This document shows, piece by piece, positions 22,301-25,168 of a DNA stretch of 64,000 nucleotides. The position numbers and the translations under genes were made by a program. Under the pieces are notes generated by a model. The model did not search any database. It had not been told where the DNA came from and saw nothing but the letters and a program-made list of their open reading frames with translations. How positions within the stretch are numbered: position 1 is the stretch's first letter; the number at the start of each line of letters is the position of its first letter. The stretch comes from Aplysia californica (taxonomy: Eukaryota). The stretch lies in assembly GCF_000002075.1 (NCBI RefSeq), contig NW_004798023.1, positions 158,488 through 222,487 of the forward strand, read 5' to 3'.

Positions 22301-25168
22301 TGGCAGAGGCTTTCAACACCAGCGTGAATGCTCTTGAAGATGAGCTGATGCAACTCATCTTGGATGGGCAAATCAAAGCTCGGATTGATTCCCACAACAA
22401 GGTATGAGAACAAAGCTTTATTGTGTTCCCATTATAAGCAGTGATGAAAAAATTTTCAAAAGTTGCTTTTAAACAGTTAACTGCAGTTTTAAATGTTTCT
22501 GAAATAAAAAATGTGCTGGCTCTGCAGATGTTAAGAAAAGTGGACATGGATTATGTGCAGAGCTGATATTACCTGTTCTTATTATATATATTCTGTTTCT
22601 GCATTACTCTTGTATTGGATAGAAACCTCGTTTTGATAAGTAGTTTTTTAATAGATGTTGGAATGGATTTGTCTCCTGTTGATATTTTTTGTAGCTGTAT
22701 TTTTTTTATGGTGCATTTTCCGTTTAGTTTATTCAATCTGGTTTTAACGAATCAACATTCTGTGTTTTTAAAGAATTGACAGTTGTACAACTGGAATGTT
22801 TTTTTATAATAGTTGTGCAGTTTGGAAATATGCAGAAAAAAACATCAGGTAACTTGTTTCATTTTTTTAATTTTTTTTTTTTTGCCTCTAGTTTTATTTT
22901 GGCCTGTATATTAATTCATTTTCTCTCTTTCAGTATTTAATTGAAGTAATTTGATTTTTGTTTGGATTGCATCAACTCAGATTTTGTATGCAAAAGATGT
23001 CGATCAACGGAGTACTACCTTTGAGAAAGCTATCTTGATGGGGAAGGAGTACCAGAGAAGAACAAAGGTAAGTTTTCTTTCATACACCTGACTTGTTCCT
23101 GTGAAAGTGGTTGATGAGTTGACTCACTGCTATGTTTTGAATTTGAAAAGAAGAACTTGTCACATTTTTGTTTAGTGCATAAAACTGAAATCTTATGAAT
23201 ACCTTTGGGATGTGTACATTTTTTTTTCTCCAATTTTTTTCTGTGGTTTTGATATGAAACTAGCTTATTATACTCTGTTTCAGAAAGAAAACAATGAATA
23301 AGGAATAATATTTTGTCATATCATTTTATTAGGTAGCTAGGCTGTGAGGAACTTAATTAGCTGCTGATGTGTGAAGAAAAATATCCTGAAGAATGAGGGG
23401 AATGTATAATGTACCTAGTTCTAGATAGTCTACCGCAAGCTGACAAAACGCCTTTTATCTCGAAACTTCTGTGAGTAAACACACAATGTTTTGTGAGCTC
23501 ACGGTGGTAGTTTTCTCATTATGTGTGATTTGCTCTAAATTTGATTCTGTTTCCGAGTTATTTTTGTTTGCTATTTGTTGTCTTGTAATTTTCCTTTCAT
23601 GTTTTGTATGTCGAACAATTGGGAGGCAGACAGAATTTATTAGGCCAGGACTTTTCCTTGTAGAGCTTCTGGTGTTCCTGTCTGCAACATTATCGTGCAA
23701 GATTTCGCTAACACTGACAGAGTTGTTCAACTCCATTGTCAGAGTTTGATAGTAGGCCTTGCAACAGCCTTTTAATTAAGGCGAACATTTGCAATGTACT
23801 TATGTTGAAGGAAGCATCGTGTTTTTAAAAATAAGTAGCATTTCATAAACTAGGGATGTAGCCTAATTGTTTCAGGTTTGCTTTGGTTTCAGATTTTTTA
23901 ACCCTTCCAACTTTGAAAAAAAAAAAAAAGGTTTTAAACCAATAATGAGTGGGTGGTTGGCGGGTGCTCTGGCGTGGTTTGCTTCTTCTTTCCTATCAAA
24001 CGTCTATTGTCTTTATCTCCCCTTCTTCTTTTTTATGTTTGTTACTCTCTTGTAACACCTCTAATCTTCTGGCGCTCATATGACCTTATGCAGTTGCGAG
24101 CGCCGTAAAACCTCTACTAAAATGAAACGAACAATTGGGGATTTTATTTCATTAAATGCGAAGATATTGCAATCATTTTAAAAATGTTCGCTTTTCTCAA
24201 CAGGCCCTTATATTGAGATCTGCCGTTATAAAGATTCAACTTCACGTCAAGGTTGGTCATGATTTTGTTTAGTCCTGTGTCCAAGGCAGTAAACAGTGCC
24301 CGTAGAAGTAGCAAAAAAAAAATGATGGATCAGTTTAGAATAGTCTTTTACTCATATTTCATCCTTAATATTTATAATTTGTACATGACTGTCAGCTATT
24401 TCTGTGGGTTGATCAAAAGGTTTGGCTCATATCTAACAAAAGACTGGAAAGAGAATGTAATAATGGTGACAAGTCAATGCTAATTGATTGTCAGTTTAAG
24501 ACACGTTTGATATATTTTGTCTCTATGATGTTTTATTTTATGTTCTTGTGATAAAGCATTAGAATTTAAAAGTAAAGGTTTGCCTATCATCTTCACGAAA
24601 GAGTGTTTCACCTTCTTGTCGGAGTAATTGTTAAAATTGTTGGTGTCTTCACTCTTATCACGTTTTTTTTTTTTTTTTGGTTTTTATAATAGACAGTGTG
24701 ATTTTAAAATTATGAACATTCAACTGAAAACTGTCGAACAGGTCCATTTTAAGATTGTCTGATTTTTGTGAATTCTGTATGTTTCATGATTTGCAAGTTA
24801 AGAATTCTTAAATGTGTCAAAAACTTCCACTAGAATCTAGTCATTGGTAAGTCTTTGAGCTTGACATTTGAAAAAAAACAACTAGTTACTCCCCCGCCCC
24901 CGCGCCCCCCCCCCCAACAACTTTGAATTTGTCCATCTTATCTTCTAAAGGAAACTACCAGAAAATAATCCATGTAAAAAAAAAAATCTCTTTACTCCTG
25001 GCCAGTTTCCTTTCGAGGATTTTGCACGATACTTGATTTTTGTCTATAGAATCAATAAATCGAGTTCCTCACCTCAGTTCACTTGTCCCACAGAGTCCGC
25101 CACGGGAAGGGATGCAAGTAGAAATGTCAATCGCGCCCGCTAGTGCTAGCTCTGTGGTGAGGAATTAG
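10300..25168 (+). CDS. GPS1: COP9 signalosome subunit 1 (CSN1), 14 coding exons, 484 aa
   Basis: 1455-nt spliced ORF, all GT-AG. Motifs [56 protein letters not shown]-domain [17 protein letters not shown] and C-terminal HVKSPPREG. Confidence 0.97.
11108..11238. mobile_element. Short MITE with internal CCTAAC-like repeats; partial copy at about 58612-58686
   Basis: Inverted TACGAGCGACCAC / GTGGTCGCTCGTA within imperfect TIRs. Confidence 0.7.
11420..12154. mobile_element. TIR element remnant
   Basis: Perfect 19-bp inverted repeat CGGATTCAACGAAGTCGCT at 11420-11438 and 12136-12154. Confidence 0.6.
14875..14967 (+). CDS. GPS1: GPS1 exon 2 ([10 protein letters not shown]...ENASI)
   Basis: cag acceptor, GTGAGT donor, 93 nt. 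Confidence 0.93.
15498..15923. mobile_element. ~440-bp MITE (family B)
   Basis: Collinear with the copies at 29831-30776; AATCAGG...GTCAA / TTGAC...CCTGATT termini. Confidence 0.75.
16159..16346 (+). CDS. GPS1: GPS1 exon 3 (DLEHYASQF...IATSG)
   Basis: tttcag acceptor, GTAAGT donor, 188 nt. Confidence 0.95.
16654..16830 (+). CDS. GPS1: GPS1 exon 4 (SRGGASS...KESIR)
   Basis: tttacag acceptor, GTTTGA donor, 177 nt. Confidence 0.95.
17238..17373 (+). CDS. GPS1: GPS1 exon 5 ([10 protein letters not shown]...NVIK)
   Basis: cctcag acceptor, GTAAGT donor, 136 nt. Confidence 0.96.
17777..17914 (+). mobile_element. SINE/LINE 3' end with L2-like tail and (TTA)n; second copy at 26663-26797
   Basis: GTAAAGCGC...GCGCTATACAAATGCT-(TTA)n; two near-identical copies. 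Confidence 0.8.
18149..18217 (+). CDS. GPS1: GPS1 exon 6 ([23 protein letters not shown])
   Basis: tttcag acceptor, GTAAGT donor, 69 nt. Confidence 0.95.
18232..18585 (+). mobile_element. Two tandem copies of a ~180-bp short retroposon (family A)
   Basis: GGTTGGCGGGTGCT...TTGTAACACCTCTAATCTT...GTAAAAC...ACTAAA consensus. Confidence 0.85.
19059..19196 (+). CDS. GPS1: GPS1 exon 7 (NNKEAYQ...LKCAAGLA...CDFPE)
   Basis: tttcag acceptor, GTGAGT donor, 138 nt. Confidence 0.95.
19483..19581 (+). ncRNA. Candidate intronic box C/D snoRNA
   Basis: GGTCCC-TGATGA (19489-19494) to CTGA (19571-19574)-g-GGGACC terminal stem; sense strand of GPS1 intron 7; no target identified. Confidence 0.35.
19913..20007 (+). 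CDS. GPS1: GPS1 exon 8 ([31 protein letters not shown])
   Basis: ttttacag acceptor, GTTCGT donor, 95 nt. Confidence 0.95.
20218..20377 (+). mobile_element. Family A retroposon
   Basis: Same consensus. Confidence 0.85.
20498..20603 (+). CDS. GPS1: GPS1 exon 9 ([14 protein letters not shown]...EIK)
   Basis: cacag acceptor, GTTTGT donor, 106 nt. Confidence 0.95.
21088..21168 (+). CDS. GPS1: GPS1 exon 10 ([27 protein letters not shown])
   Basis: ttccag acceptor, GTAAAT donor, 81 nt. Confidence 0.95.
21606..21926. mobile_element. hAT-like MITE
   Basis: C(A/G)GGGGT..CCAAACT TIRs; degenerate 8-bp TSD ATCTAACG / ATTTAAGG. Confidence 0.7.
22264..22401 (+). CDS. GPS1: GPS1 exon 11 ([10 protein letters not shown]...RIDSHNK)
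   Basis: tttacag acceptor, GTATGA donor, 138 nt. Confidence 0.95.
22981..23067 (+). CDS. GPS1: GPS1 exon 12 ([29 protein letters not shown])
   Basis: ctcag acceptor, GTAAGT donor, 87 nt. Confidence 0.95.
23626..23769 (+). ncRNA. Intronic box H/ACA snoRNA, predicted 28S rRNA pseudouridylation guide
   Basis: Hairpin GCAGACAG/CTGTCTGC, H box ACATTA 23687-23692, hairpin TGCAAG/CTTGCA, ACA 23764-23766. 3' pocket strands TTTCGCTA and GATAGTAGG complement 28S (C/U)CUACUAUCUAGCGAAA. Confidence 0.85.
23948..24123 (+). mobile_element. Family A retroposon
   Basis: Near-consensus copy with GGCGCTC/GAGCGCC stem. Confidence 0.88.
24204..24251 (+). CDS. GPS1: GPS1 exon 13 ([16 protein letters not shown])
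   Basis: caacag acceptor, GTTGGT donor, 48 nt. Confidence 0.92.
25094..25168 (+). CDS. GPS1: GPS1 exon 14 ([24 protein letters not shown])
   Basis: cccacag acceptor, conserved SPPREG, TAG stop. Confidence 0.92.
   Translation, partial: SPPREGMQVEMSIAPASASSVVRN

Follow-up and report, generated by a model that had tools for sequence, protein, structure and literature searches.

An intact SNORA62/snR82-clan snoRNA in a CSN1 intron of Aplysia californica, likely retroposed from a FUBP intron together with a SINE

An intron of the GPS1/CSN1 gene of Aplysia californica contains an intact copy of an H/ACA snoRNA of the SNORA62/snR82 clan, which was probably retroposed from an intron of FUBP together with a SINE in a single event. 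According to prediction, its 3' pocket directs pseudouridylation of two 28S rRNA uridines that lie two bases apart. The window, by which the whole 64,000-nucleotide stretch of DNA that was analysed is meant, contains the following features, all on the + strand:

23068..24203, +: GPS1/CSN1 host intron (intron 12 if there is one further upstream exon), with GT/AG ends, the exon-exon junction in RNA runs X11 and X18, and a CSN1 exon nearby
23612..23623, +: left copy of a 12-bp target-site duplication, abutting the first base homologous to the parent (the 12-mer is present only twice in the window)
23624..23769, +: H/ACA snoRNA copy, SNORA62/SNORA6-like (clan CL00040, with snR82), from the Rfam match, folding and the FUBP alignment
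23626..23685, +: 5' hairpin, the pocket of which looks degenerate and lacks a confident target (folding, pocket pairing scan)
23687..23692, +: H box, ACATTA (motif position)
23703..23710, +: left strand of the 3' pseudouridylation pocket (motif position, alignment of eight sequences)
23748..23756, +: right strand of the 3' pocket, with registers 16 and 14 nt from ACA (motif position, homologue alignment)
23764..23766, +: ACA box, 3 nt from the end (motif position)
23770..23948, +: copied FUBP intron sequence, 179 nt, from the 3' side of the parental snoRNA (150 matches, 14 mismatches and 16 gap columns against L001 1651-1815)
23840..23843, +: site of a ~230-bp MITE with a 4-bp duplication in other samples, absent from this assembly (loose ends in X9, X11 and X18; element family)
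23949..24127, +: SINE-like repeat of ~175 nt, full-length, which has a 3' stem-loop and a short tandem tail and lies in the orientation of the snoRNA (genome-wide copies)
24128..24139, +: right copy of the 12-bp target-site duplication (repeat comparison)

The H/ACA layout that the sequence-only reading had claimed for the sense strand was borne out, with every motif at the position given for it and with folding and Rfam in agreement. Folding predicts two hairpins (z = -3.02; 1 of 200 shuffles was equally good), arranged as hairpin, hinge with H box, hairpin and tail, with ACA three bases before a 3' end that is taken from the model. The basal stem of the 5' hairpin, GCAGACAG/CTGTCTGC, starts at 23626 and consists entirely of Watson-Crick pairs in the CSN1 copy; that of the 3' hairpin is TGCAAG/CTTGCA. 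Comparison with Rfam, which that reading had proposed, gave a match of 23623-23769 to RF00091 (SNORA62/SNORA6) across the whole model (57.9 bits, E 4.1e-10), the sole Rfam match at E <= 0.1 within the 64-kb window. This score is below the gathering threshold of 80, a scan of the window at gathering thresholds returned zero matches, with RF00091 appearing by E-value only, and the snoRNA is classed here as a homologue within clan CL00040, not as a curated member of RF00091. Judged by its sequence, it is a member of an already known group (SNORA62/SNORA6 and snR82, and ceN58 with an identical pocket). It shares the full-model match and the 3' pocket with SNORA62 (E2) and SNORA6 (ACA6), but differs from them in its sub-threshold score, its degenerate 5' pocket and its hosts, FUBP and CSN1. 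The earlier reading, which saw an H/ACA snoRNA, two registers that fit the target sites of snR82, and a 5' pocket lacking a confident target, stands on these points, but it had missed both the known group and the probable retrocopy origin. Change of host is a habit of the SNORA62/SNORA6 family, which is placed in RPSA in vertebrates and in FAU in sponges (PMC4515611).

Among homologues, the left strand of the 3' pocket is unvaried in all eight aligned sequences, partly by construction of the search pattern. Compensatory change is evident in the upper stem, where three of four pairs have changed on both sides across the eight sequences and 0 of 500 shuffles attain the covariation score, and the basal stems are 4-8 bp long with differing letters. 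The spacing from GATAG to ACA (or ANA) is 16 nt in six homologues and 15 nt in the other two.

The 3' pocket pairs with the 28S rRNA of Aplysia, the complementary segment of which has six exact matches in the genome, in two registers of 15 bp each, at 14 nt (8+7 bp) and 16 nt (6+9 bp) from ACA, in keeping with the bipartite pocket rule that rRNA pairing lies 14-16 nt from the box (bioRxiv 10.1101/569061). These registers, both foreseen from the sequence, rank as the top two among all rRNA sites (scores of 35 and 34, the next being 28), but the pairing by itself is only moderately above chance: among 100 shuffled pockets, a score of 35 was attained by 5, and a second-best score of 34 by 2. Each of the two alternative pairings places a uridine correctly, as in the dual-guide loops of Jady et al. 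(2022). The predicted pocket would slide between the two pairings onto 28S U2680 and U2682 (numbered from the Rfam LSU start in L043), which we infer from sequence to be homologous to U2349 and U2351, the two uridines targeted by snR82. The second target uridine is present in Aplysia 28S rRNA, and its equivalent in human is a C. The yeast targets are listed under these numbers in PMC5699541, and as 2348/2350 in PMC8763049. The dual register is not new, as it is already described for snR82, for which a two-register loop has been proposed and the depletion of which abolishes both modifications in yeast (PMC8763049). The Rfam consensus of yeast snR82 (RF01261, clan CL00040) has identical pocket strands and, like the Aplysia copy, two alternative pairings; however, snR82 is ~270 nt long and its dual activity is based on genetic depletion, whereas the Aplysia RNA is 146 nt long, intronic and known by prediction only.

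For the 5' pocket, the earlier statement that it has no confident target agrees with a scan of pairing sites. The best in-loop site, 28S U3460 (5+7 bp), was rejected, as it holds in the CSN1 copy only; two positions fitting the known 5' targets of the family rank 21 and 101 of 401 sites in the CSN1 copy, and the first of these two ranks 20 of 234 in the FUBP copy. Because U3460 fits only one copy and the known-type sites rank low, a switch of 5' target by the 3-nt indel between the copies is unsupported.

The host gene was correctly named as GPS1/CSN1, since exon 22264-22401 resembles CSN1 (E 1.6e-16) and splicing is seen in two RNA runs; its designation as intron 12 requires exactly one more upstream exon, eleven exons with acceptors having been located upstream of the intron. 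The snoRNA sits in sense orientation in this transcribed and spliced intron. A discrete mature RNA of ~145 nt was not seen in contigs and poly(A) reads: RNA contigs span the intron as long pieces, and the poly(A) run X24 has only five sense reads (8 of 24 sequence runs were examined at the locus). No paper on a GPS1 intron as snoRNA host was found in the literature searched.

Only two copies of the snoRNA were found in the Aplysia genome, the other being in an intron of FUBP and near-identical (140 matching positions, 6 mismatched ones and a single gap of 3 nt). The copies are distinguished by bases 23652, 23656 and 23665 and by a 3-nt insert of the parent that is missing from CSN1. FUBP also hosts three SNORD43-like matches (E 3e-6, 0.015 and 0.12), and the FUBP gene of another organism (L048) contains two SNORA62 copies. 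GPS1/CSN1 is likely not the ancestral host, and sequence comparison indicates that the snoRNA there would be a derived retro-insertion from the FUBP intron. The FUBP copy is without a comparable flanking duplication, the best being 8 bp of AT-rich sequence, and no SNORD43 retrocopies were found in a genome search (one match at E <= 0.01). Between CSN1 and FUBP, substitutions number 6/146 in the snoRNA and 14/164 in the flank, a difference that is not significant (p = 0.16; p = 0.04 with indels); the lower divergence of the snoRNA is approximately the halving expected if the parent alone were constrained.

Homology to the parent begins at 23624, two positions ahead of the basal stem, and includes none of the parent's upstream intron; downstream it takes in an A run (23916-23929) common to the parent, and the copied stretch stops some 585 nt short of the 3' splice site of the parent. 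The snoRNA, the 179-nt flank and the SINE all lie inside one 12-bp direct repeat, the best among 350 sampled 5' boundaries. The SINE belongs to an abundant family, a 39-nt stretch of it having 2707 exact matches in the genome, and the 5' end of the family is fixed in 24 of 30 copies. Duplications of 9-18 bp flank 16 of 24 full-length copies (4 of 72 controls), and the length of the 12-bp duplication fits this range, which counts for co-insertion. Both parts have the same orientation inside one duplication without target-site triplication, the configuration of a template switch; the platypus snoRTE likewise has a small RNA at the 5' side and a retroelement at the 3' side, in the same orientation and from one insertion. 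A LINE reverse transcriptase would copy the SINE RNA at a nick, and would then jump to, or meet already ligated, a snoRNA precursor that was mature at its 5' end and untrimmed at its 3' end. Visual inspection upstream of the six tail-only SINE copies turned up no recognisable LINE reading frame, and no empty allele is among the matches listed for eight runs. Derivation of the SINE from the next FUBP intron, by deletion within one transcript, was rejected: that copy shares none of the derived changes and comes 20th of 22 when copies are ordered by identity.

Two successive insertions, in which a Type-2 snoRNA retrocopy with the 12-bp duplication was followed by a SINE that landed a few bases from the 3' end of the retrocopy and made a separate short duplication, are unlikely, but several observations speak for them. 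The SINE is flanked by a repeat of 5 bp (7 bp if one mismatch is allowed), and a long duplication is likewise missing from 8 of 24 full-length copies, so that a later separate insertion keeps some small probability; removal of the SINE would lengthen the parent match by about two bases; the SINE is 2.3% from its family majority, compared with 8.5% between the two flanks; and SINEs land at snoRT sites (Weber 2006, PMC1687206). However, the second element would have had to hit a 325-nt insert only a few bases from its end, with a duplication shorter than the family's usual 9-18 bp and without triplication, the retrocopy would be without an A-tail of its own, and the 8.5% covers two lineages, which makes the two ages compatible. 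Duplication or repair capture at the DNA level, without an RNA step, would account for the inclusion of intron sequence and the absence of an own poly(A) tail, but is very improbable because the 5' boundary coincides with the predicted 5' end of the snoRNA, the parental upstream intron is absent, and the insert is bounded by a 12-bp duplication and finishes with the 3' tail of a retroelement.

As to function, it appears rather doubtful that the CSN1 copy is a young neutral retro-pseudogene, not yet decayed, with FUBP alone making the guide RNA. The divergence pattern is compatible with constraint on one copy only, the discrete RNA was not seen in the contigs and poly(A) reads, and no further Rfam RNA is hosted by CSN1 within the window; against this, the boxes are intact, as are the two strands of the pocket and the stems of the 3' hairpin, the 5' basal stem is perfectly paired, the intron is transcribed and spliced with the snoRNA in sense, and snoRNAs put in foreign introns are processed in cultured cells (Weber 2006, PMC1687206). 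An active CSN1 copy would be released from the intron and loaded with the dyskerin complex, and would be redundant with the FUBP copy. Use of a single register by the pocket, with the second pairing as an unused relic, is likewise improbable. The register of the U2349 equivalent is the one annotated for vertebrate E2 and ACA6, the 3' pocket of which is assigned to one site, U3832 (PMC1687206), but both registers reach 15 bp at permitted distances, the spacing from GATAG is 16 nt in 6/8 homologues and 15 nt in 2/8, and snR82 depletion removes both modifications (PMC8763049).

The co-inserted unit resembles two kinds of known retrocopies. With Type-2 snoRNA retroposons (Weber 2006, PMC1687206) it shares a 5' end at the predicted mature end, downstream parental intron, a duplication within 7-19 bp and a sense position in a new host intron. 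It differs in having the SINE in place of an A-rich tail directly after the intron part, in ending far from the 3' splice site and not near the branch point, and in the single duplication shared by snoRNA and SINE, whereas the partners in the available portion of Weber's account each had their own. The U6-, U3- and 5S-LINE-1 chimeric retrogenes (PMC13174262) also join a small RNA 5' to a retroelement 3' in the same orientation by one insertion. In contrast to these, the 3' partner in Aplysia is a whole SINE-like element, the 5' partner is an H/ACA precursor of intronic origin that retains every guide element intact, and the fusion is single-copy in the assembly, not an amplified family. In other samples, the contigs point to a tandem array of the segment with about 2-4 repeats.

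The locus is a clear record of a snoRNA host-gene change outside mammals. The 5' edge of the insert marks the 5' end of the copied RNA, which suggests that the parent is processed in vivo, and the enclosure of snoRNA and SINE by one duplication is a co-insertion arrangement unreported in the accessible part of Weber's mammalian survey. Aplysia offers an animal in which dual guidance of the snR82 type is open to testing at both uridines, and the locus may also present a guide RNA with natural copy-number polymorphism. Speculatively, the SINE lent a LINE-recognised tail to a half-processed H/ACA precursor and thereby moved a working dual-guide snoRNA to a new host, where the copy has since been tandemly amplified to numbers that vary among individuals, such that the guide for two large-rRNA pseudouridines may by now come mainly from CSN1, in a dosage that varies.

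All the H/ACA motifs that the sequence-only reading had described were found where it placed them, and its assignment of the host gene as CSN1/GPS1 held: the host intron spans 23068-24203, and the exons on either side of it are spliced together in two RNA runs from other samples (X11 and X18). Folding gave two hairpins from a 144-nt stretch (z = -3.02). The Rfam check proposed with that reading gave no match at gathering thresholds; by E-value it gave a full-length match to SNORA62/SNORA6 (RF00091) at 23623-23769 (model positions 1-154 of 154, 57.9 bits, E 4.1e-10), the sole Rfam match at E <= 0.1 within the 64-kb window. 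The element is a genuine copy of an H/ACA snoRNA whose clan (CL00040) is known, with a dual pocket of known type. The window also contains, on the minus strand, translations that resemble exons of two other genes, provisionally named by the look of the peptides:

4200-6500, minus strand: presumably a Nudix hydrolase (MTH1-like)
about 34200-57700, minus strand: presumably V-ATPase subunit a

The rRNA units of A. californica were located, and the 28S segment complementary to the 3' pocket exists in this species, with six exact matches in the genome. When every U of 18S, 5.8S and 28S was scanned, the best site for the 3' pocket was 28S U2682 (6+9 bp, 16 nt from ACA, score 35), followed by U2680 (8+7 bp, 14 nt from ACA, score 34) and then by a site scoring 28; the 5' pocket had no confident target, in line with the sequence-only reading. 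Under a lenient shuffle null, 35 was reached in 5 of 100 shuffles and a second-best score of 34 in 2 of 100, so that homology weighs more than pairing alone. In the accessible text of the sources, 25S U2349 and U2351 are given as targets of yeast snR82 (PMC5699541), service of both sites by its 3' loop through two alternative pairings is a proposal of Jady et al. 2022 (PMC8763049), and U3832 is the assigned target of the 3' pocket in vertebrate E2 and ACA6 (Weber 2006, PMC1687206). The two-register idea, whose registers are the top two rRNA sites, is therefore well founded but not new for this clan.

Six loci came out of a pattern search through metagenome contigs, of which Rfam assigned four to SNORA62 (one with two copies) and one to snR82, both members of CL00040; the remaining locus, L047, was assigned to neither family at E <= 0.01. 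The snR82 consensus has identical pocket strands. Pocket strands are invariant in eight aligned sequences, partly due to selection by the search pattern. The stems lay outside that selection and show covariation: both sides of the upper stem changed in three of four pairs, and basal stems hold 4-8 bp despite differing letters. Two divergent SNORA62-family copies with differing 5' pockets (L048 442-580 and 912-1058, minus strand) lie in adjacent introns of another organism's FUBP gene, whose intron positions differ from those of A. californica FUBP. Another SNORA62 homologue (L049 812-956) lies between GAPDH exons, its 5' pocket pairing 5+5 bp at the 28S U2678 site, and weaker homologues occur upstream of MDM10-like frames (L045 and L046).

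One other genomic copy was located (G000:C56:1856532-1856681), a count that is a lower bound. The exons on either side of this copy's intron encode a KH protein whose nearest match is FUBP1. Homology between the CSN1 and FUBP copies starts at 23624, two bases ahead of the basal stem, and stops at 23948, 179 nt beyond the snoRNA. Right after this flank, at 23949, starts a SINE-like repeat of ~175 nt, a 39-nt stretch of which has 2707 exact genome matches. Among 30 copies fetched, 24 had a common 5' end and 6 shared the tail alone; 9-18-bp duplications flanked 16 of the 24, versus 4 of 72 controls. A stem-loop and short tandem repeats close the element, as is typical of LINE-mobilised SINEs, and the element showed no tRNA head on inspection by eye. 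Its tail of ~50 nt is also borne by other repeats, and another short repeat lies on either side of the CSN1 3' part. These repeats are placed in the window as follows:

18235-18580, 20216-20376, 29438-29613, 31776-31936, 34643-34813, 48062-48234, 51864-52031: further SINE-like copies
17700-17900 and 26640-26790: the other short repeat, two copies

The SINE in the CSN1 intron has a repeat of its own of just 5 bp. An exact 12-bp repeat (23612-23623 and 24128-24139) brackets snoRNA, flank and SINE together; it was the best among 350 sampled left boundaries and is absent elsewhere in the window. The CSN1 copy was very probably derived from FUBP by retroposition and, given retroposition, a one-step chimera with the SINE is the most likely course, with good probability. 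As far as the accessible texts go, the insert is alike in anatomy to Weber's Type-2 snoRNA retroposons except that the A-tail is missing (PMC1687206), and shares with U6-/U3-/5S-LINE-1 chimeric retrogenes the single duplication around both parts (PMC13174262). No prior description was found in the literature searched, which covers a minority of subscription papers.

The CSN1 copy is probably, but not demonstrably, active as the predicted guide. Boxes and pocket strands are identical to those of the FUBP copy. Substitutions affect 6 of 146 snoRNA versus 14 of 164 flank positions (p = 0.16), and events including indels number 7 versus 19 (p = 0.04), a ratio that constraint on the parent alone would also give; at one of the six substitutions, 23725, the parent's base is present in run X17. 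Long contigs span the host intron in X11 and X18, consistent with pre-mRNA. Poly(A) run X24 contained five sense reads at about 23664-23840 and run X23 about two, with no reads on the adjacent CSN1 exon in either.

Contigs of runs X9, X11 and X18 follow the reference up to 23843 and there pass into a repeat whose end motif has 631 exact genome matches. At 5 of 12 loci both ends lay within 1.5 kb of each other; these five copies measure 220-239 bp and each has a 4-bp duplication, which marks the repeat as a MITE. In these three runs a MITE of ~230 bp with a 4-bp AT-rich duplication is inserted at 23840-23843, and it is absent from the assembly. A single 82-nt contig of X9 links the MITE far end and 23840-23855 back to 23218, and the depths of this junction contig (116.6) and the unique upstream flank (44.7) together correspond to that across 23230-23708 (162.2); the FUBP copy has a depth of 41.2. 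These figures point to a tandem unit of ~640 bp (23218-23857) plus MITE, with the snoRNA inside, in ~3.6 copies; X10 (131 versus 60.7) gives ~2.2, all these being contig depths rather than true copy numbers, with the junction seen in one contig. An array of about 2-4 copies fairly likely exists in other samples, versus one in the assembly, which may have collapsed it.

A duplication of the 12-bp type was looked for around the FUBP copy and not found. Neighbouring FUBP introns contain three matches to a SNORD43-like C/D snoRNA, two of them weak; positions are on L004, the FUBP locus of this genome, where a tRNA-like match was also seen:

2016-2080: SNORD43-like, FUBP intron, E 3e-6
2725-2790: SNORD43-like, FUBP intron, E 0.12
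3327-3392: SNORD43-like, FUBP intron, E 0.015
8992-9064, minus strand: tRNA-like match

The lack of a duplication, the SNORD43-like neighbours and the SNORA62 copies in FUBP introns of the other organism indicate that FUBP is the likely parent of the CSN1 copy, and the SNORD43-like matches make FUBP a multi-snoRNA host.
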